Below are positions 5,220 through 38,409 of a DNA stretch of 64,000 nucleotides, piece by piece (position 1 is the stretch's first letter; each line of letters starts with the position of its first letter). The notes beneath the pieces were generated by a model. The model did not search any database. It was not told where the DNA came from and saw only the letters and a program-made list of their open reading frames with translations. This DNA comes from Escherichia coli. Its GTDB lineage: Bacteria; Pseudomonadota; Gammaproteobacteria; Enterobacterales; Enterobacteriaceae. The stretch lies in NCBI RefSeq assembly GCF_001677475.2, contig NZ_CP015229.1. One strand, 5' to 3'. The position numbers and the translations under genes were made by a program.

Positions 5220-5595
5220 AATTCACACCCTTATAAGGCTGGGAAAGCAGACGGAATCAAAACGAAACGCAACGTGCGAGATCGACTAACTGCACCATAT
5301 TCTCCTGAAATATGAAGATATACTGAAAACAAATAAGCGACTTAGGACAGTTTCAATCTACGCTACTGTTCTTCAGAAGAGTATAGCCCATCGTAATTAT
5401 TTTTCGGTGACAGCGAATATCGTATGTTTTTTCATATTCATACATTTTTATTAGGGGATTTATGGCTATTTAACTAAGTGTGGTTAATTGCGTGGTGAAT
5501 TTGACTTAAGTAAGCATGATTACTAGTGGGATATTTCAAGAGGGTAGCAAGCCGGTGGGTAAACCACCGGCTTGTCACAAAGTATGAATGGGAGT

Positions 5596-6915
5596 TTAAC
5601 TGCCCCAACGACTTTGCAGATAGCTGACCGCTTGTTGAGTCTGCGGTTTATTCAGATAGTCCTCACGGAACAAGATGGTGCCGCTAATTTCTGGTACCGC
5701 ATCGTTAAGATCGAGCTGCTTTTTCAGTTCCGGTACGCCGCCGTTAATCATCCAGTCTGGCTCTATCTTTGAAGGTTCACCCACTTTATAGAAGGCGATA
5801 CCGATATACAGGCGGGTCCTGGTCGGTTTAACGACATCCGCCCACCATTTTGCCAACACGTCATAACGCGCGGCACTCCGTGAGAACGGCCAGTAAATTT
5901 GGGGAGCAATGTAATCCAGCAATCCTTGTTCCACCCATCGACGGGTGTCAGCGTAGGATTCGTCATAGGCTGCCGCGCCTCGGGTATCGGAACCGAGCGG
6001 ATCGTGTGATCGGTTACGCCACACGCCTGCCGGGCTAACACCAAATTCGACTCCCGGCTTAATGCTTTTAATGGTGTGCGATACCTTTGCAATTAACTGC
6101 TGAGTATTGTTGCGCCGCCAGTCTGCTTTTGACGCAAATGCGCCTCCGTATTTACGGTACGTTTCGTTATCATTTAGCCGTGAACCCGGTGATTCAGTAT
6201 AGAAATAGTCGTCAAACTGCACGCCATCTACCGGATAGCGGGAAACCACTTCCGCGACTATTGATGTGATCCAGTCCTGAACCTCAGGGATGCCCGGGTC
6301 GAGGACAAAGCGATCGCCGGACGTTCTGATCCAGTCGCGGTGTTGCACATAGACGCTCGCCGGTTGTTGAGACAGAGTGCTATTCAGTTCCCTGATAGTA
6401 CCGGGCTTCGTATTAACCGATACGCGATAGGGGTTAAACCAGGCGTGTACTTTCATCCCACGCTTGTGAGCTTCGTCGAGAATAAATTGCAGCGGATCGT
6501 AACCTGGATTTTCACCAATCTTTCCGGTCATAAGATCGGACCACGGCAAAATTTTCGATGGCCACAGGGCGGTACCGTCCGGCTTGACCTGGAAAAAGAC
6601 CGTGTTTATGCCGAGACGTTGCAGATGATCCAGTTTGTCGATCATCGCCTGTTGTTGTACACGTGCCCGGCTGGTGGGGTTACTAATGTTAACCGAGGAA
6701 ACCGGTGGCCAGTCGAGGCGAGACACCGTGGCCAGCCAGATGCCACGCATCGGTTGTGACGATTGTTGCGTCGTGGCTGGTGGCTTCGAACCTGTTGGTG
6801 GTGTCACCATTGACTCTGGGGGCGTGCTTTTGCAACTACACAGTAAAAGTGCCAGTGCAACCAGTACCGCGGGTCTTCTAATCGCTAATTTCTCGTTTCG
6901 GGAGCAGATATCCAT
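5596..6915 (-). CDS. yddW: Lipoprotein glycoside hydrolase YddW/DigH
   Basis: 439-aa ORF with lipoprotein signal (…LLLCSCKS) recognised as E. coli YddW. Confidence 0.85.
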   Translation of the reverse strand: MDICSRNEKLAIRRPAVLVALALLLCSCKSTPPESMVTPPTGSKPPATTQQSSQPMRGIWLATVSRLDWPPVSSVNISNPTSRARVQQQAMIDKLDHLQRLGINTVFFQVKPDGTALWPSKILPWSDLMTGKIGENPGYDPLQFILDEAHKRGMKVHAWFNPYRVSVNTKPGTIRELNSTLSQQPASVYVQHRDWIRTSGDRFVLDPGIPEVQDWITSIVAEVVSRYPVDGVQFDDYFYTESPGSRLNDNETYRKYGGAFASKADWRRNNTQQLIAKVSHTIKSIKPGVEFGVSPAGVWRNRSHDPLGSDTRGAAAYDESYADTRRWVEQGLLDYIAPQIYWPFSRSAARYDVLAKWWADVVKPTRTRLYIGIAFYKVGEPSKIEPDWMINGGVPELKKQLDLNDAVPEISGTILFREDYLNKPQTQQAVSYLQSRWGS

Positions 6916-10498: not shown

Positions 10499-13294
10499 TT
10501 ATTTTGGCAATAATATTCCAGTATAAGTATTTACCGGATGAGAAAGATATTGTTTAACGGCAGTGTTAACATTCTCTACCGTCATTTGTTTCAACAATTG
10601 CTCCTGCTCAGTCCATGCTGCAGGATCGTCATATTGAATAAGACTATTTACAATAGTGTTCGCTAATTGTTGAACGCTACGCTGTTGGATATCGAGGCTG
10701 CGCTGAACGTTTTGCTGGTATTCATTCAGTTCTTGCTCACTGATCCCTTTAGCCAGACGCTTAACCATCACTTCATTCGCTAACGTTAACAGTTCATCAT
10801 GTCGTTCTGGTTGACAAGTAAAAGCCAGCAAATGACTGATATCTTTGGCCTCAGGATCAACCGAGAGGCGAGAAGAAACGCTGTATGCTCCAGATGCCTG
10901 TTCACGAATATTAACGCGTAGATCTTTTGCCAGTGCGACGTTAAAAGCATCGAGCGCCATACGCGTCTCCAGATTTACAGGTGTCCGGGAATCATAACGT
11001 TTCCACTGTGAAACCTGTGCCACAGGTTCATTTTGTTCTTTTACAGTAACCGATGCGTTGTCCGTCGCGCGAGTTAATGGTTTACCTGCGGCTAATGGCG
11101 AATCAGAGTGTTTGATTGATCCTAAGTAACGCGTAATTAACGCCACGAGTTTGTCTTCTGCGACATTACCGACAATGACAAACGTGATATCCGCTGGAGA
11201 TGAAAACAACTGGCGATCGGCAGCCAGCGCATCTGCGGCAGTAAACTGTGCAATCTGATTTTCTTGCAGTAATTTCGTGCGGTCATCAGCATAGCGCGTC
11301 TCATACATCTGCTGGGCGAATTTCTCCGCTGGACGCTGGTCGAGCGTTTTCAACGCCTGAATTTGAGCATTTTGTAGCGATGCCCAAATATTATCGTTAA
11401 TCGTGCTGTGGGTGATTCGCTGGTTAATCAACTGGAAACCAGGTTCAGGGTTATTAGTCCGCGTGCTAACAGAGAGCAATGTATTCATGCCACTGACTTT
11501 ACTGCTCATGGTTACCGAGTTTTCCGCACTCCAGCGTTTCAGGCTGGAAGAGGAGAGTTCACCAACGCCGCTTCCGCTTACTGCTTTATTTGCCAGCGCG
11601 ATAAGTGATTTTTGCTGCGCAGGGAAACTTAAATCGCCTTTATTAGATACGGCAGTAATTTGTAGCTTTTGCTCTTCACCCGCGGATTTTGCCAGAATAA
11701 CCCTGGCACCATTGGAAAGTGTTAATGATGTCAGATTCTCAGCCAGCGTTTCTTTGCTGCTAATTTCCGCCAGTGGGTCAGCGTCTACTGTTAACGATAA
11801 ATTTCTGCCTGGGAAGATGTAAGCCGCCAGCTTTTTGTTGGCGTACTCTTTTTCCAGCGCCAGGATAGCCGCAGGAGACAATGCTTTTTTGGCAGCAACC
11901 TCATTGTTTACCATTTGCTCCCAAAATGCATCCTGGTTCTTTCTTAACTGCTGCCATTTTTCCGCCAGACTTTGCACGGTAATTTGCTGCCACAGACGTT
12001 TCGAAAGTTGATATGTCTCTTCCGGCGACAAGAACGGCGTATTATTTAATGAGCTGGATGCCAGGCGACTGGTCAGCATACGTAAATCACGTTCAGCTTG
12101 CTGATCAACCGCATTTTTCAGCCAGGTGAGGCGGGTAGATTTGACATCATCGAGTTCTTCAGCAGAAAAACCATGCTGATCAATGGTTGCCAACTCTGCC
12201 ATTAATGCATTCGCAGCATCCTGCATATTATCGTCTCGTGCATTTACACGGAAAAACAGCGACTGATAATCGGGTGCAATTTTAACGCTGCGCGCAGTGC
12301 CGCCAGAAATAGTCTTCAACTCGCCCGACTGTATGCGTTCCTGCAGACGTTGATTGAACAGCTGAACTAACATGCTCCATTCCGCTTGTTCGATAAAGCT
12401 TTGCTCATCGTTCACTTGTACCATTGGCAGGCGATAATAGAGTGCGATGCCGTTCACCCGGTTTTCTTTATCATTAATGATATTAAAGCGCAGGTGATTT
12501 TCGGCTTTTGTCGGCCAGACGCGATTTTCAGCTGCTTTGTTAGCCGGAAGCTTACTTAAATTATCCTTTATCAGCGCCAGCGCTTCTTTACTGTCGATAT
12601 CGCCGACCACGATAAAGGTCATATTATTTGGTTGATACCAGCGTTGATAAAATTGGCGCAATTGTGCCGGTGTGACCGTGGCGACAGTATCCATCAGGCC
12701 GATAGGTTCACGGTCTAAATTACGGGTATTAGCCAGCAGGAAAGGGCGGCGCGCCTGAGAGGTGCGCCATTTCGCATCCTGATGGGCACGCCATTCCTCA
12801 GTAATTACGCCACGTTCAGCGTCAACTTCGAGTTTTTCAAAGGTTGCGGCATTACTCCATTCACTGAAGATTGCCATCACTTGTTGCAGATTTTGTTTCT
12901 GCGTAGTCGGCAAACTCACCTGATACACCGTTTCGTCATAGCTGGTATAGGCATTAACATCGCGACCAAAACGCAGGCCCATTGACTCAAATGTTTCGAT
13001 GACTTTATTACCCGGCCATGTTTTTGTGCCGTTAAACATCATATGTTCTACAAAATGAGCCACGCCGCGCTCATTGTCTTCTTCCTGCAATGAACCGGTA
13101 TGAATTTGCAGCCATAAATTTATCTGATCCTTTGGATGAGCATGCGGATAAATCATATATCGCAAGCCATTGTCCAGTTGCCCGGTAATTAACTTTTCAT
13201 CCTGCGGTAAGGCGGCGGCAATCAGCCGCCCGGGGAGCAACAGAGTTGCCACTAACGTCAGTAAGAAACAGAGGTTTCTCATAATTATCTCCAT
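10499..13294 (-). CDS. pqqL: Periplasmic M16-family zinc peptidase
   Basis: 931-aa ORF with signal peptide and HFVEH (inverted HXXEH) zinc motif; recognised as E. coli PqqL. Confidence 0.9.
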   Translation of the reverse strand: MEIIMRNLCFLLTLVATLLLPGRLIAAALPQDEKLITGQLDNGLRYMIYPHAHPKDQINLWLQIHTGSLQEEDNERGVAHFVEHMMFNGTKTWPGNKVIETFESMGLRFGRDVNAYTSYDETVYQVSLPTTQKQNLQQVMAIFSEWSNAATFEKLEVDAERGVITEEWRAHQDAKWRTSQARRPFLLANTRNLDREPIGLMDTVATVTPAQLRQFYQRWYQPNNMTFIVVGDIDSKEALALIKDNLSKLPANKAAENRVWPTKAENHLRFNIINDKENRVNGIALYYRLPMVQVNDEQSFIEQAEWSMLVQLFNQRLQERIQSGELKTISGGTARSVKIAPDYQSLFFRVNARDDNMQDAANALMAELATIDQHGFSAEELDDVKSTRLTWLKNAVDQQAERDLRMLTSRLASSSLNNTPFLSPEETYQLSKRLWQQITVQSLAEKWQQLRKNQDAFWEQMVNNEVAAKKALSPAAILALEKEYANKKLAAYIFPGRNLSLTVDADPLAEISSKETLAENLTSLTLSNGARVILAKSAGEEQKLQITAVSNKGDLSFPAQQKSLIALANKAVSGSGVGELSSSSLKRWSAENSVTMSSKVSGMNTLLSVSTRTNNPEPGFQLINQRITHSTINDNIWASLQNAQIQALKTLDQRPAEKFAQQMYETRYADDRTKLLQENQIAQFTAADALAADRQLFSSPADITFVIVGNVAEDKLVALITRYLGSIKHSDSPLAAGKPLTRATDNASVTVKEQNEPVAQVSQWKRYDSRTPVNLETRMALDAFNVALAKDLRVNIREQASGAYSVSSRLSVDPEAKDISHLLAFTCQPERHDELLTLANEVMVKRLAKGISEQELNEYQQNVQRSLDIQQRSVQQLANTIVNSLIQYDDPAAWTEQEQLLKQMTVENVNTAVKQYLSHPVNTYTGILLPK

Positions 13295-31711: not shown

Positions 31712-32062
31712 TTAAAGCTGACCGACAGACTTTCTTAACCTGGTAATATCTCTCTTAGGTGACTCTCCAAACATCCGCGAATATTCCCGACTGAAATGGG
31801 ATAAGCTTTCGTAACCGACAGCATAGGCTGCAGTGGTGACATCGTAATGTTCATTCAGCATCGGTCGCCTGGCTTCATTGAGGCGTAGCCATTTCTGATA
31901 CCGGAGTGGACTCATTCCCGCAAGCTGTCTGAAGTGTTGATGGAAAGAGGGGGGTTCATTTGCACGCGGTTTGCCAGCCTGACTCTTCAACGCAGGGAAG
32001 ATGCGGCAAACGGCAAACCTGCATACCAGCCAGCCTATATCCGGTATGCACAGGCTAATCAT
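31712..32062 (-). pseudogene. yneL: AraC-family regulator fragment (HTH domain only)
   Basis: 116-aa ORF carrying only an AraC-type HTH (…LSHFSREYSRMFGESPKRD…) with no sensing domain; corresponds to the yneL remnant that flanks dif in K-12. Confidence 0.6.
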
Positions 32063-32141
32063 GAAAGAGGAGAGGCTTTATGTTCTTGAACCCTGAAGTA
32101 ATAACGACGACCGGAAAATCGCTTCGCATCACTCAAACTCA

Positions 32142-32169
32142 ATTTAACATAATATACATTATGCGCACT
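32142..32169. other. dif-like site, left junction (attL): host-like XerD arm, phage-like XerC arm
   Basis: ATTTAACATAA-TATACA-TTATGCGCACT; 27 of 28 identical to the reverse complement of E. coli dif (GGTGCGCATAATGTATATTATGTTAAAT, recalled); the single mismatch is the outermost base of the XerC arm. Confidence 0.85.
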
Positions 32170-32181
32170 AAGGTGCGCATA
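32160..32181 (+). repeat. 9-bp perfect inverted repeat of the XerC-binding arm
   Basis: TATGCGCAC-TAAG-GTGCGCATA; the left half is the XerC arm of attL, the right half an inverted copy; overlaps a 10-bp palindrome CGCATATGCG (32176..32185). Confidence 0.8.
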
Positions 32182-32202
32182 TGCGTATTCTGGAGGTGTG
32201 TC

Positions 32203-33066
32203 ATGGCTTGTACTCGTCCTTTGAACGCGTACCAAATGCCATCGGGGAAGATTTTTTTCACGCCGTCACGTGGCGCTAAATTCATTCAGTTGCCCTGTGG
32301 TCAGTGCATCGGTTGCCGTCTTGCTCATTCTCGTGACTGGGCGACCCGCTGCGTTCATGAAGCCCACATGCACGATCACAATTGTTTTATCACTCTGACT
32401 TATTCGCCTGAGAATTTACCTGAAGGCGGTACTCTCGTTCGTAAACATTTCACCGATTTTATGAAGCGTTTGCGTAAGGAATTAGATAAGGATGATGTGA
32501 AAATTCGTTATTTTGGCTGTGGTGAATATGGCTCTAAATTAGAGCGACCGCATTATCATGCGATTATTTTTGGTTATGATTTTCCGGATAAGACACTTTA
32601 TAAAGCGGGAAGATTTAATTTATTTAATTCCCCGCTTCTTTCGAGATGTTGGAATCTTGGTTGGGCTGTTATTGCTGGTTTTAGTTTTGAGTCGGCTGCT
32701 TATGTGGCGCGATACTGTGTTAAAAAAATCAACGGTTTCCGTGCAGATGAGCATTATGGACATCGCCTACCCGAGTTTTCGGCTATGAGTAATCGCCCAG
32801 GTATTGGGTATGATTTTTTTATGACCTATTACGAGGATATTGTTAATGCAGATGCGTGTATTGGTCGTGGCGGTCGTCAGATAAAACCGCCCCGCTATTA
32901 TGACAAGTTATTATCAGGCTGTGATTTGGAAAAGTTGCAGCAGAATAAAGAAAAGCGCCAGTTAAATGCCCGTGTATTAGACCCGTGGCGTTTGCAGGAT
33001 TTGGATAAGTTTAATCTGGTTAAATTCCAGCGAATGATGAGGAAATTAGAAGATGGCTCACTCTGA
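32203..33066 (+). CDS. Replication initiation protein (VP4, rolling-circle HUH endonuclease)
   Basis: Track ORF 32080..33066 trimmed to MACTRPLNAYQ… (287 aa) with GGAGG 6 nt upstream. Rolling-circle motifs: FITLTY, HYHAIIF (HUH), AAYVARYCVKK (catalytic Tyr pair), plus CGQCIGC. Confidence 0.9.
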   Translation: MACTRPLNAYQMPSGKIFFTPSRGAKFIQLPCGQCIGCRLAHSRDWATRCVHEAHMHDHNCFITLTYSPENLPEGGTLVRKHFTDFMKRLRKELDKDDVKIRYFGCGEYGSKLERPHYHAIIFGYDFPDKTLYKAGRFNLFNSPLLSRCWNLGWAVIAGFSFESAAYVARYCVKKINGFRADEHYGHRLPEFSAMSNRPGIGYDFFMTYYEDIVNADACIGRGGRQIKPPRYYDKLLSGCDLEKLQQNKEKRQLNARVLDPWRLQDLDKFNLVKFQRMMRKLEDGSL

Positions 33067-33322
33067 TGCAGTTTATGTAATTCATGACAAGCTGATTGCG
33101 GCTGATGTTTTTATGTTTATGGCCCAGCATGATGGTATTGCGAAAGGCAATTTGCACGCGTTCTGTAACCGTATGCAGCGCACTGACTTTGTGCTGTACC
33201 GTGTGACGGCTTATGACTTTGAAGACCAGCAGCTCGTCCCCGTGGACATTGACCGCGTTTATATTTGCACCGCTTTCCCTGCCATGCTGGAGAATGCCCA
33301 AGATGAAATCCTTGAAGCGTAA
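33053..33322 (+). CDS. Small phage protein, VP5-like
   Basis: 89-aa ORF overlapping the VP4 3' end and the VP3 start; assigned by size and position in the gokushovirus gene order, not by motif. Confidence 0.6.
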   Translation: MAHSDAVYVIHDKLIAADVFMFMAQHDGIAKGNLHAFCNRMQRTDFVLYRVTAYDFEDQQLVPVDIDRVYICTAFPAMLENAQDEILEA

Positions 33323-33815
33323 GTTCCATACCCGCTATGACCCGCCGCCGTCGCCCGGCATCGAGTTCAAAGAACCCACGATGACCCAGCAGCATTTCCG
33401 CGATGAGTGCGACATCAACAAGATTGTTGAGCGTGCGATAAGAACGGGAGATACGACAGTCTTTACCAGTGCTCAACGTGCTGATTTCTACGATGCATCT
33501 TCGATTACTGACTACGTGGACGCAATGGCTTTAATTGACGACGTTAACGACGACTTTAACAGCCTGCCGTCCACGATTCGCTCGATGTTTGGTAATAACG
33601 TTAAGCAGTACGTTGAGTGGATGAGTAATCCCGCGAACTGGAATAAAGCCCGTGAGCTTGGATTGTTGAGCGGCGGAGAGGAGTCGGCGACCGAACGCGC
33701 CAGCGTTCGCGAGTCGAGTCCTGCTCCGGCGTCCCCGCGGGAGCGTGAGCGGACTTCGGAGAGTTCCCCGAAGGGGGAGTCGGAGAAGTCTGCGAATAAT
33801 GATGCAGGCTCATGA
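33303..33815 (+). CDS. Internal scaffolding protein, VP3-like
   Basis: ORF 33213..33815; likely start MKSLKRKFHTRYDPPPSPGIEF… (33303, or 33294); acidic Ser/Glu-rich C-terminus. Assigned by position and size. Confidence 0.6.
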   Translation: MKSLKRKFHTRYDPPPSPGIEFKEPTMTQQHFRDECDINKIVERAIRTGDTTVFTSAQRADFYDASSITDYVDAMALIDDVNDDFNSLPSTIRSMFGNNVKQYVEWMSNPANWNKARELGLLSGGEESATERASVRESSPAPASPRERERTSESSPKGESEKSANNDAGS

Positions 33816-35759: not shown

Positions 35760-36542
35760 ATGGGCTTTTTATCATCTGCCATTGGTGCCGCTGGTTCTAT
35801 TGCCGGCTCCCTGCTTGGTGCGAACTCTGCGAAGGATTCAGCTAACCGTGCCAATAAGTTAACGATGGATTTGGCCAAAAACGGCATCCAGTACCGTGTG
35901 CAGGATTTACGGAAAGCTGGCCTTAACCCCATTCTGGCCGTTACTGGTTCCGGTGGTCTTGGTTCCGTCAGTTCGTCAGGTATTCAGGCCGCCCAGCCTG
36001 CCGATTTTTCTGGTGTGGTTAATTCTGCGGTCAGCGTATTTGACGCATTAACGAAGCGTCAGCAGCAGGAAGTCGCTAAGGAAGGCATCATGTCCCAGAT
36101 TGCGTTACAACGTAACCAGATTGCGAATAGCGCGGCTGATGTGAAGCTCAAAGAGGCTCAGGCTGCGCAAGCCTTATCTTCCATTTCTACTGGTAATGCC
36201 CAGACTAATTTGATTAATCAGCAGGCTTTGACCGAGGCTTCCCGCCGTGCCAATATTGAAGCACAGACGGGCCTTAGTTCTGCGCAGCGGATTAGAACAC
36301 AGTATCAAACTGTACAGGACAAGGTTTTGGCTGATTATTTGAATACACCGATTGGAGCTGAAAGTGCACGTGTCAATATGGATGCTTCTCGCGGTGGTAT
36401 CGTTGGCGGCGTTAATACTTTTCTGCGTTCTTTGCAACGTGATTACCCGTCTAACTCGAACTCTGCGAAGAAAGTAAACAAGGGGGGAACCTTCCCCCCT
36501 TCACAGTTCCAACAGCAATTGATTAATAACTATCGGAGGTAA
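35760..36542 (+). CDS. Minor capsid / DNA pilot protein (VP2-like)
   Basis: 260-aa ORF with Gly/Ala/Ser-rich N-terminus (MGFLSSAIGAAGSIAGSLLGANSA…) and Gln/Ala-rich predicted coiled region; RBS GAGGTG; position after VP1. Confidence 0.7.
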   Translation: MGFLSSAIGAAGSIAGSLLGANSAKDSANRANKLTMDLAKNGIQYRVQDLRKAGLNPILAVTGSGGLGSVSSSGIQAAQPADFSGVVNSAVSVFDALTKRQQQEVAKEGIMSQIALQRNQIANSAADVKLKEAQAAQALSSISTGNAQTNLINQQALTEASRRANIEAQTGLSSAQRIRTQYQTVQDKVLADYLNTPIGAESARVNMDASRGGIVGGVNTFLRSLQRDYPSNSNSAKKVNKGGTFPPSQFQQQLINNYRR

Positions 36543-36543
36543 T

Positions 36544-36663
36544 ATGGCTCGTTCTCGCCGTCGTATGTCCAAGCGTTCTTCCCGTCGTTCGTTCCGTAAG
36601 TACGCAAAGACGCATAAACGTAACTTTAAAGCCCGCTCTATGCGTGGTGGAATTCGTCTTTGA
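36544..36663 (+). CDS. Small basic DNA-binding protein (VP8 / J-like), absent from the ORF track
   Basis: ATG at 36544, stop TGA 36661..36663; translation MARSRRRMSKRSSRRSFRKYAKTHKRNFKARSMRGGIRL (39 aa, roughly 40% Arg/Lys). Confidence 0.7.
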   Translation: MARSRRRMSKRSSRRSFRKYAKTHKRNFKARSMRGGIRL

Positions 36664-36716: not shown

Positions 36717-36744
36717 GTTAAACTAAATATACATTATGCGCACC
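36717..36744. other. dif-like site, right junction (attR): phage-like degenerate XerD arm, host-like XerC arm
   Basis: GTTAAACTAAA-TATACA-TTATGCGCACC; XerD arm 7 of 11, central region 6 of 6, XerC arm 11 of 11 versus dif. Confidence 0.8.
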
Positions 36745-36820: not shown

Positions 36821-38143
36821 TTACTTAATACCGTATTCTCGGCTTAACCGACGGTGCAACCTCAACACATTGGTTTCAACTGCCGTCACCACGTTCTTCG
36901 GAAAATCTGTCGGTAATGAAGTCTTCACGTTATCCAGTGCTGCCGGAATCATTCTGGCAAAGTCACTCAGGATTTCATGCATCTGCACTTCCGGAAATTT
37001 CAGCACCTTTGCTGTCGCCAGAAAATGTCGCGGATAAATTTTATCGATTGCCGTTTTTTTGCCTTTGGATGAGTTAAGCCCCATTGCCAGTTTGAGATCG
37101 CTAATGTGTATTCCTGCGCCACCCAATACCGGAAATGCTGAAATGATGTCGTAAAATGGCGTGAGTCGATAACTGCCGCCAGCCTGAATAAATACGGAGA
37201 AGTTTTTTGCATGGCCATCCGTTGCGCCAATCAACCACTGGAACACCTGAAACTTCATAAAATCATAGCGATCTTTCAGCGCCTCGCTGGACCCCATCAA
37301 AAAAGCCATGATCCGCGCGATACCTGGGCCTCCATCTGATTCATATTTCACCGATGAAGGTAAACCGAATGTCTGACACATATCCTCCTGTGGCAAGCGA
37401 AGTAAAACCGTTCGCTCAGCATTCCAACGCCTGTCAAAACGTTCGACCGCTAACGCACGCACATTTCCCGCTTTAATGATTTCTGCGTCCGGCACATTCA
37501 ACCCAAGTTCTTTCGCCAGCAGCAGACAGTAATACTCATTATCAACGCTTTGGCTGAGATCGAGCGTCGCATTGGGCTGCCTGATTTCGCCAATCGGTAA
37601 TTTAATGATGTGTGTCGTCGGCGTTATTCCTTTCGGAATGCACCAGTCATTGCCTATTCTGAGCAGCGCTGTCTTCTCCTGCGCGCCAGCAACCGAGATG
37701 CGAAAGTCATTTTCTTCTCTAATCATGCCTAGAGGGATATCTGCTTTATAAGCCGTTAATACTTCTTCAAGCCTGGCTTCAGTGAGCTGCTCCCATGCCA
37801 TTATCGGGCGCGTTATGGTTTCATTTTCGGGTAATAACGTTACGGCACCAACGCTGTCTCGCCCTATTTCTGACAATAAATCAAACGGTTGTCTGGATTT
37901 AGCATGATAACGTTTAACGATCCGGTCACGTACAATCGGGCTATCGGGTAGCAGGTTATCGAAGAAGTTAAATACGGCATCAGAGGTGATATTCCCCCTC
38001 TGCAATGGCAGCGAAAGTGACAACGGTCTGGCATAACGGTTAGCTAACCACTCCGGTGCATACTTAAAGGTGTGCGCGCCATTGGCTAACTTCGTTAACT
38101 CGCCTACCCGCTGGTTGTTCATCCAAGTGACAAGTTTAGGCAT
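36821..38143 (-). CDS. hipA: Ser/Thr kinase toxin HipA
   Basis: ORF 36821..38200 trimmed to MPKLVTWMNNQRVGELTKLANGAHTFKYAPEWL… (440 aa); start overlaps the hipB stop by 1 nt. Confidence 0.92.
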   Translation of the reverse strand: MPKLVTWMNNQRVGELTKLANGAHTFKYAPEWLANRYARPLSLSLPLQRGNITSDAVFNFFDNLLPDSPIVRDRIVKRYHAKSRQPFDLLSEIGRDSVGAVTLLPENETITRPIMAWEQLTEARLEEVLTAYKADIPLGMIREENDFRISVAGAQEKTALLRIGNDWCIPKGITPTTHIIKLPIGEIRQPNATLDLSQSVDNEYYCLLLAKELGLNVPDAEIIKAGNVRALAVERFDRRWNAERTVLLRLPQEDMCQTFGLPSSVKYESDGGPGIARIMAFLMGSSEALKDRYDFMKFQVFQWLIGATDGHAKNFSVFIQAGGSYRLTPFYDIISAFPVLGGAGIHISDLKLAMGLNSSKGKKTAIDKIYPRHFLATAKVLKFPEVQMHEILSDFARMIPAALDNVKTSLPTDFPKNVVTAVETNVLRLHRRLSREYGIK

Positions 38144-38409
38144 TACCACTCCAGATCTTGCTGTTCTGTTGATTCTGGCGAGGCATTTTTCGTGTCGCAT
38201 AGCGTCATTGAGAGTTCAAGCGACTGTAAAATCTTAAAAAATGTCGTGAGCGTGGTATTGTCAGGGTTGTTTTCGAAATTGGAAATTGTCGCCTGCTTAA
38301 TACCGATTTTTTTCGCCAGCTCGCTCTGCGTCCAGCCATTTTGCTGACGAACCAGTTTCATTGCATTCGCTAATTGCGTTGGGCTATAAATCTTCTGAAA
38401 GCTCATCAT
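38143..38409 (-). CDS. hipB: Antitoxin and HTH repressor HipB
   Basis: ORF 38143..38427 trimmed to MMSFQKIYSPTQLANAMKLVRQQNGWTQSELAKKIGIKQATISNFENN… (88 aa). Confidence 0.9.
   Translation of the reverse strand: MMSFQKIYSPTQLANAMKLVRQQNGWTQSELAKKIGIKQATISNFENNPDNTTLTTFFKILQSLELSMTLCDTKNASPESTEQQDLEW

Follow-up and report, generated by a model that had tools for sequence, protein, structure and literature searches.

Dif-Like Sites Flanking an Enterogokushovirus Prophage of Escherichia coli Are Very Probably Reciprocal Host/Phage Hybrids of XerC/XerD Recombination

We analyzed a stretch of 64,000 nucleotides of Escherichia coli DNA, here called the window, in which two dif motifs flank an element of 4,603 bp from site to site. 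The element is a complete enterogokushovirus prophage with the gene order VP4-VP5-VP3-VP1-VP2-VP8 (Table 1), and its length fits the range of about 4.3 to 4.7 kb of enterogokushoviruses. The dif-like motif is located in the VP8-VP4 intergenic region. The strain carrying the window is lysogenic for a small temperate single-stranded DNA (ssDNA) phage of the Gokushovirinae (Microviridae). Neither an integrase nor a transposase nor another recombinase was found among the six open reading frames (ORFs) of the element by means of the ORF list and of PHROG and Pfam profile matches.

Table 1. Features of the prophage locus (positions are those of the 64,000-nucleotide window)
Feature	Position	Strand	Basis
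Host left flank: AraC-family (yneL-like) pseudogene remnant, adjoining dif	31712..32062	-	ORF list; annotations of E. coli genomes also place this helix-turn-helix domain-containing protein pseudogene to the left of dif
attL, read as a hybrid site: host XerD arm ATTTAACATAA, host spacer TATACA, phage XerC arm TTATGCGCACT	32142..32169	+	27/28 to E. coli dif
Palindrome ATGCGCAC-taag-GTGCGCAT: perfect, 8 bp, 4-nt loop	32161..32180	+	Sequence; DNA fold z = -2.75
VP4 rolling-circle replication initiation protein, 287 aa, GGAGG before the start	32203..33066	+	phrog_942, E = 8e-112; RefSeq uses the same start in relatives
VP5 nonstructural protein	33053..33322	+	Pfam Phage_ORF5, E = 1e-4; vp5 position as in EC6098
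VP3 internal scaffolding protein, start codon inferred	about 33303..33815	+	phrog_1642, E = 1.5e-37; vp3 position as in EC6098
VP1 major capsid protein, 570 aa	33993..35705	+	phrog_514, E = 3e-217
VP2 DNA pilot protein	35760..36542	+	phrog_8693, E = 2e-17; vp2 position as in EC6098
VP8 small basic protein, 39 aa; annotated in EC6098 as a putative DNA-binding protein	36544..36663	+	phrog_10695, E = 1.6e-10
attR, read as a hybrid site: degenerate phage XerD arm GTTAAACTAAA, TATACA, host XerC arm TTATGCGCACC	36717..36744	+	XerD arm 7/11; followed by host flank aacataaaccaagggagaat
Host right flank: hipA, then hipB	36821..38200	-	ORF list; hipA/hipB annotated at the same position in E. coli genomes

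The element shares 91.9% nucleotide identity with Escherichia phage EC6098, the type enterogokushovirus, over 90% of its length and is 84% identical to Microvirus mar4, and its VP1 is 85 to 91% identical to those of five relatives, the value for EC6098 VP1 being 91%. Related prophages with 85 to 94% identity were found in 6 of 5,426 complete E. coli genomes, the closest of which is at most about 94% identical to the window element, and all six are situated between a yneL-like pseudogene and hipA, as in the window. Indeed, the gene order and the yneL/hipA insertion point are the same as those of EC6098 and the Enterogokushovirus prophages of Escherichia, and the flanking 28-mers are identical to those of the EC6098 group, although in comparison with the described enterogokushoviruses the window prophage is a distinct variant. 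That enterogokushoviruses enter dif as prophages by means of XerCD is already known (Kirchberger and Ochman, eLife 2020). With respect to VP4, a mechanically called ORF (32080-33066) starts with an ATG at 32080 in host DNA and passes through attL in frame into the gene, and the GenBank annotation of EC6098 places the vp4 start at an ATG inside the XerC arm (TTATGCGCAC). The ATG at 32203, which is preceded by GGAGG, is more likely to be the start of VP4 than these upstream ATGs.

The reference dif of E. coli reads ATTTAACATAATATACATTATGCGCACC in the orientation of the window and was checked in five unoccupied E. coli chromosomes (28/28 each). According to an earlier note made from the window sequence, the left site has a perfect host XerD arm and spacer and a XerC arm with one mismatch, and the right site combines a XerD arm matching at 7 of 11 positions with a perfect host XerC arm; both descriptions proved accurate. 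The sole difference between attL and dif is the outermost base of the XerC arm, and the spacer of attR is identical to that of dif. A search of the 64-kb window for dif with up to 3 mismatches returned attL as the only match (0 expected), and the 16-mer TATACATTATGCGCAC has exactly two copies, at 32153 and 36728 (0.08 expected even with 2 mismatches allowed). No dif-like site besides these two was found within the window. attL and attR share a direct repeat of 18 identical nucleotides (32151-32168 and 36726-36743), which extends from position 10 of the XerD arm to position 10 of the XerC arm.

An empty-site construct of 828 nt, made by placing a single dif between the two flanks of the window, aligned without a break to at least 3,054 of the 5,426 E. 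coli genomes (best identity, 98.6%); removal of the prophage in silico thus recreates the yneL-dif-hipA locus. This contiguity indicates that the host is E. coli and that the insertion was precise and took place exactly at the chromosomal dif. In all five unoccupied chromosomes sampled, whose left flanks differ, dif matches at 28/28 positions, ends in C, and is followed by aa[c/t]ataaaccaagg, corresponding to the bases after the right site of the window. In two of the empty sites (L032 and L036), the bases after dif are the same as the host flank of attR, aacataaaccaagggagaat.

We further compared the junctions of the window with those of related lysogens, which are partly related to each other, so that the counts given here do not all represent phylogenetically independent events. 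All nine left junctions (the window, six complete E. coli genomes, and two metagenome contigs) consist of the host XerD arm, TATACA, and TTATGCGCACT (hereafter T-type), followed by phage DNA. Among the right junctions with an E. coli-type flank, which were drawn from the window, the six genomes, and the metagenome contigs L010 and L012, seven out of eight have the phage XerD arm and spacer followed by the host arm TTATGCGCACC (ending CACC), and that of strain C41 has one substitution in the host-derived XerC arm. Since T stands next to phage DNA and C is found in the empty sites and the right junctions, T travels with the phage and C with the chromosome. The published lysogens show a similar distribution: in our tally of Supplementary file 1 of PMC7062461, the upstream site is A-type (equivalent to T in the window orientation) in 88 of 95 lysogens, and the canonical host XerC arm is present downstream in 61 of 81 readable entries. 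Besides, the two 28-mers of the window are the most frequent pair in that file, and the sequence of a metagenome-assembled genome in the same supplement (ERR688616) begins inside a T-type site. The earlier note had read the pair of sites as reciprocal products of one crossover, and this is supported by the left junctions (T-type in 9/9), the empty sites (C in 5/5), and the right junctions (host arm in 7/8). Thus, attL and attR are very probably reciprocal host/phage hybrids derived from XerC/XerD recombination of attP with dif.

The variant XerC arm of the C41 right site (L005 5995-6022; TTATGCGCATC) is also found in two cattle isolates in the PMC7062461 table, where it is given as GATGCGCATAA. 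A metagenome scan for the phage arm returned three contigs, none of which was a free circle: L010 and L012 are E. coli-flanked lysogen junctions, and L011 is a lysogen with other flanks. The right site of L011, which ends in T, was considered as a counterexample and rejected as uninformative, because its flank is an ISNCY transposase fragment and not the hipA side of E. coli.

In PMC7062461, the sites are labelled "bacterial" and "phage," the bacterial motif being at most 1 nucleotide from the canonical dif, and the sites of the EC6098 group were labelled without a reciprocal-hybrid view, whereas we read those of the window as hybrids. This implies a small correction to the literature, namely, that in enterogokushovirus lysogens the XerC arm of the upstream site is derived from the phage and that of the "phage" site from the host. 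Several rows of Supplementary file 1 (5-11, 13-14, 57, 83-85, and 90) contain sites that fit neither the host dif nor the resident phage, with TTTATT or TGAGGC spacers, XerC arms TAGGCGTACAA, and A-type downstream arms. Tandem arrays in which other elements have also integrated at dif may account for these sites.

From the two junctions, the attP of the phage is predicted to be GTTAAACTAAA-TATACA-TTATGCGCACT. GenBank record MT185428 (EC6098) begins with c-GTTAAACTAAA-TATACA-TTATGCGCACT-aaggtgcgcat and so contains the predicted attP without a mismatch. It does not count as independent evidence from a natural circle, because the EC6098 phage was obtained by amplifying the prophage by PCR and circularizing the product (PMC7062461). 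The published primers (PMC7062461 Supplementary file 5) would join ...GCGCACC to AAGGTGCGCAT and produce a C-type site; the primer-built circle would accordingly be C-type (…GCGCACC+AAGG), whereas the deposited EC6098 sequence is T-type (…GCGCACT-AAGG). The forward primer for MOD1-EC5150 begins with TAAGG, by which the junction would gain an additional base. On K-12, no plaques were obtained with three of the four circles built by those authors (PMC7062461).

The exact attP 28-mer had one match in the viral collection, the EC6098 record itself (L003), and an independent natural circle carrying it was not found in that collection; a shorter pattern, ACATTATGCGCACTAAG, added only L015. The closest natural circular contig (L013; 127-nt terminal overlap, VP1 89% identical) reads, in order, phage right end, GTTAAACTAAA-TATACA-TTATGCGCACC, and phage left end, and in the natural circle L015 (VP1 61% identical), TTATGCGCACT-aag is joined to a phage XerD-like arm. 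No recognizable dif-like site was detected in L014 (VP1 79% identical) at the thresholds used. The natural assemblies L013 and L015 thus confirm the architecture of the predicted attP. The T-type attP matches dif at 6/6 positions of the spacer and 10/11 of the XerC arm, and the XerC arm of L013 matches at 11/11. Since L013 ends in C and L015 is T-type, the last base of attP is polymorphic between phage lineages. In clade I of the PMC7062461 table, the upstream site is also 28/28. The attP reconstruction proposed in the earlier note therefore stood as to its architecture, which is that of the natural circle L013, and as to its T-type arm, which is present in L015 and at the start of MT185428, but not as to the last base in L013, which is C instead of T.

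The crossover had also been assigned to the 6-bp central region. Because attL and attR are identical over 18 bp, the window alone limits the exchange to this 18-bp tract, within which the choice of the spacer derives from the Xer mechanism; the relatives place the exchange more narrowly, at the XerC side. Strain C5 has TATACA as the left spacer and TTTACA as the right spacer, and the free circle mar4 has the same phage arm and spacer as C5. In the PMC7062461 table, a nonhost spacer is found downstream in 44 lysogens (clades A, B, D, and I and three singletons) and never upstream (0/44), and the phage spacers all keep the first three or four bases beside the XerC arm (TGT/TGTA). Furthermore, two gokushovirus prophages with 70 to 83% identity lie in tandem at the presumed dif of Intestinirhabdus alba (WMJZ01000007; L022 1-8616, L038 2922-2949). 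The first site of this array is ATTTAACATAA-TATACA-TTATGCGTACT, the third is CCATAACAAAA-TATACA-TTACGCGCACC, and the middle one is cGTTAACATAA-TGCAACA-TTATACGCACT, in which the XerD arm and 7-nt spacer of phage 1 are joined to the XerC arm of phage 2. The array contains three different XerC arms, with the two phage arms each beside the VP4 gene of their own phage, and one exchange falls within 7 nt (ACA|TTAT), an interval that spans the point of XerC cleavage but not that of XerD cleavage. Since the spacer cosegregates with the phage XerD arm in the relatives, the effective crossover is on the XerC cleavage side, and these comparisons provide evidence on a point left open in PMC7062461. By analogy with VGJ-phi, the pattern is that which XerC-mediated strand exchange followed by replication would give.

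We propose that a circular double-stranded replicative form would carry the dif-like attP in the VP8-VP4 intergenic region and that host XerC and XerD would recombine it with the chromosomal dif (ATTTAACATAA-TATACA-TTATGCGCACC). Each arm would keep to its own DNA, giving attL with the host XerD and phage XerC arms and attR with the phage XerD and host XerC arms. The poor XerD arm of attR might then limit, without abolishing, XerCD excision between the direct repeats. Integration of EC6098 has been reported to require xerC and xerD as well as both arms of the phage site, based on knockouts and arm deletions, whereas complementation of xerD failed, and continuous excision was observed in lysogenic colonies (PMC7062461). 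As attL and attR are direct repeats on which XerCD can act, the window prophage can probably excise in this way. With regard to the host, outer XerC positions vary within and between species, and native dif sites beginning with AGTGCGCATAA exist (PMC2731167). The A-type site carried by 88 of the 95 wild lysogens makes it very likely that attL is functional. Given its perfect XerD arm and spacer and its single difference at a variable outer XerC position, attL (27/28) is probably the working dif of the lysogen and used for dimer resolution, as the earlier note had supposed.

The window element is inserted exactly at dif and encodes no integrase or transposase of its own, as is characteristic of an IMEX (integrative mobile element exploiting Xer), for which TLC-phi, VGJ-phi, and CTX-phi types are distinguished (PMC4246890). 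By sequence definition, the window attP is TLC-phi-like: in TLC-phi of Vibrio cholerae, the XerC arm and spacer of attP are likewise near-identical to dif and the XerD arm is degenerate. TLC-phi integrates as double-stranded DNA at dif and leaves a usable dif behind (PMC4246890). TLC-phi itself belongs to the filamentous satellite phages and encodes an Xer activation factor, XafT, which in this class drives an exchange that starts with XerD and is independent of FtsK. In the window phage, VP5, considered as a candidate for such a factor, matched only Pfam Phage_ORF5, and the PHROG matches of the six proteins suggest no activator. VGJ-phi of V. cholerae has a single duplex dif-like attP and integrates reversibly, features which it shares with the gokushoviruses. 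The spacer of the window, being 6 bp long and identical to that of dif, differs from the 7-bp spacer of the 29-bp VGJ site, in which homology is missing beside the XerD arm. In contrast, sister lineages (C5, mar4, L015, and I. alba phage 1) are VGJ-phi-like, with 7-nt or divergent spacers and homology only beside the XerC arm, and the 7-nt feature is present both in the TTTTGACATAA-CTTTACA site of C5 and mar4 and in the TGCAACA spacer of L015 and I. alba phage 1. The attP or attR sites of mar4 (L002 2768-2796), L009 (5941-5969), and L015 (4367-4395) align better to dif with a 7-nt than with a 6-nt spacer; these alignments (TTTTGACATAA-CTTTACA and tATTAACATAA-TGCAACA, XerD arm 9/11) resemble the 29-bp attP of VGJ-phi. 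Among the Microviridae, proviruses of Bacteroidetes were reportedly described by Krupovic and Forterre in 2011, who are said to have proposed integration by host XerC/XerD; these are likewise integrated Microviridae, although they belong to a different microvirus group and have different hosts.

The same sites could be explained without hybrids if the upstream site were an unchanged bacterial dif in which T is a host polymorphism and a complete phage dif motif had been inserted "downstream of dif." The labels used in PMC7062461 imply this, dif of BW25113 "remains unchanged" after EC6098 integration, and for phages with a C-type XerC arm, such as L013, both readings predict the same sequences. 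We nevertheless consider this explanation very unlikely, since all five empty E. coli sites end in C and T occurs only beside phage DNA, and since the 88 of 95 published lysogens that are T-type upstream contrast with a downstream arm that is the canonical host arm. Moreover, the I. alba array has three XerC arms, both phage arms lying beside their own VP4, and the chemistry of tyrosine recombinases cannot insert DNA beside an intact site. The unchanged dif in BW25113 is accounted for by the laboratory circle, which was built C-type. It is still harder to believe that the element was inserted independently of Xer, either by RecA-type homologous recombination across the 18 bp or by target-duplicating transposition, even though it is flanked by a perfect 18-nt direct repeat and PMC7062461 speaks loosely of "homologous recombination." RecA-dependent recombination would have had very little to act on in 18 bp, the repeat coincides with the core of dif, and the element has neither transposase nor integrase. 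In addition, the exchange point in relatives is always on the XerC side, even where identity amounts to a few bases, and EC6098 fails to integrate in xerC or xerD mutants or if either arm is missing (PMC7062461).

Because the phage is an ssDNA virus, it is also conceivable that a hairpin of its genome forms the attachment site and that integration occurs via a single XerC strand exchange, as in CTX-phi of V. cholerae, which is likewise an ssDNA phage that uses host XerCD at dif and leaves hybrid junctions. Beside attL, a perfect 8-bp inverted repeat has the phage XerC arm as one half and a second, inverted XerC-like arm as the other, and this palindrome is predicted to form a stable hairpin in ssDNA (fold z = -2.75). 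It recurs in several lineages: window-type phages keep it, L015 has it with an 11-nt loop, and I. alba phage 2 has part of it, whereas it is absent in phage types B and C, which integrate in the same manner. A CTX-type attP was considered for the window and rejected, as the hairpin duplicates the XerC arm only, with neither a second XerD arm nor a second spacer to pair. CTX-phi folds ssDNA from two inverted sites and integrates irreversibly; the gokushoviruses have one duplex 28-bp dif-like site, as do VGJ-phi and TLC-phi, which integrate as double-stranded DNA (PMC4246890), and their excision has been observed. Besides, deletion of the XerD arm abolishes integration (PMC7062461). A CTX-phi-like route is thus highly improbable, and we favor recombination between a duplex attP and dif by XerC and XerD, with hybrid sites as its products.

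Further dif-associated arrangements were observed in the sequences examined. Plasmid pECO-cbb3 (NZ_CP026206, 191 kb; L037 3001-3033) carries a perfect 28/28 E. coli dif located 5 bp from the transposase-gene region of ISKpn21 (ISNCY/IS1202 family), and in L011 (about 5510-6077), the ISNCY transposase fragment abuts the XerC arm of the right site of the prophage. Both arrangements fit the finding that IS1202-family elements target dif (PMC10132070). In the uncultured Phascolarctobacterium UMGS733, a distant gokushovirus prophage lies between Firmicutes-type dif-like sites (L029 5864-5891 and about 10737-10764) whose orientation is opposite to that of the phage genes. Its left site is ACGTCCGATAA-TATATA-TTATGTAAAAT, and its right site is degenerate on the XerC side, so that the whole mirrors what is seen in enterobacteria.

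Since hybrid junctions are the standard outcome of IMEX integration, the reading of the earlier note is only a small refinement of a known system. Nevertheless, raw sequence alone sufficed for the correct reconstruction of an IMEX integration event. A broader reading, which we regard as possible but rather doubtful, is that the genus contains two mechanistically different designs, that the labels of the XerC arms have been swapped, and that the one-base mark is not neutral. The TLC-like design, to which the window phage would belong, would combine a spacer identical to that of dif with a poor XerD arm, and the VGJ-like design would have a 7-nt or divergent spacer with homology on the XerC side. 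If this were true, the names "bacterial" and "phage" in the literature would have to be exchanged as far as the XerC arms are concerned, and natural phages of most lineages would bear an A/T-type XerC arm, leaving 88 of 95 wild lysogens with a noncanonical working dif. The one-base mark and the ssDNA palindrome could then affect the frequency of excision and reintegration or the capture of secondary IMEXs.
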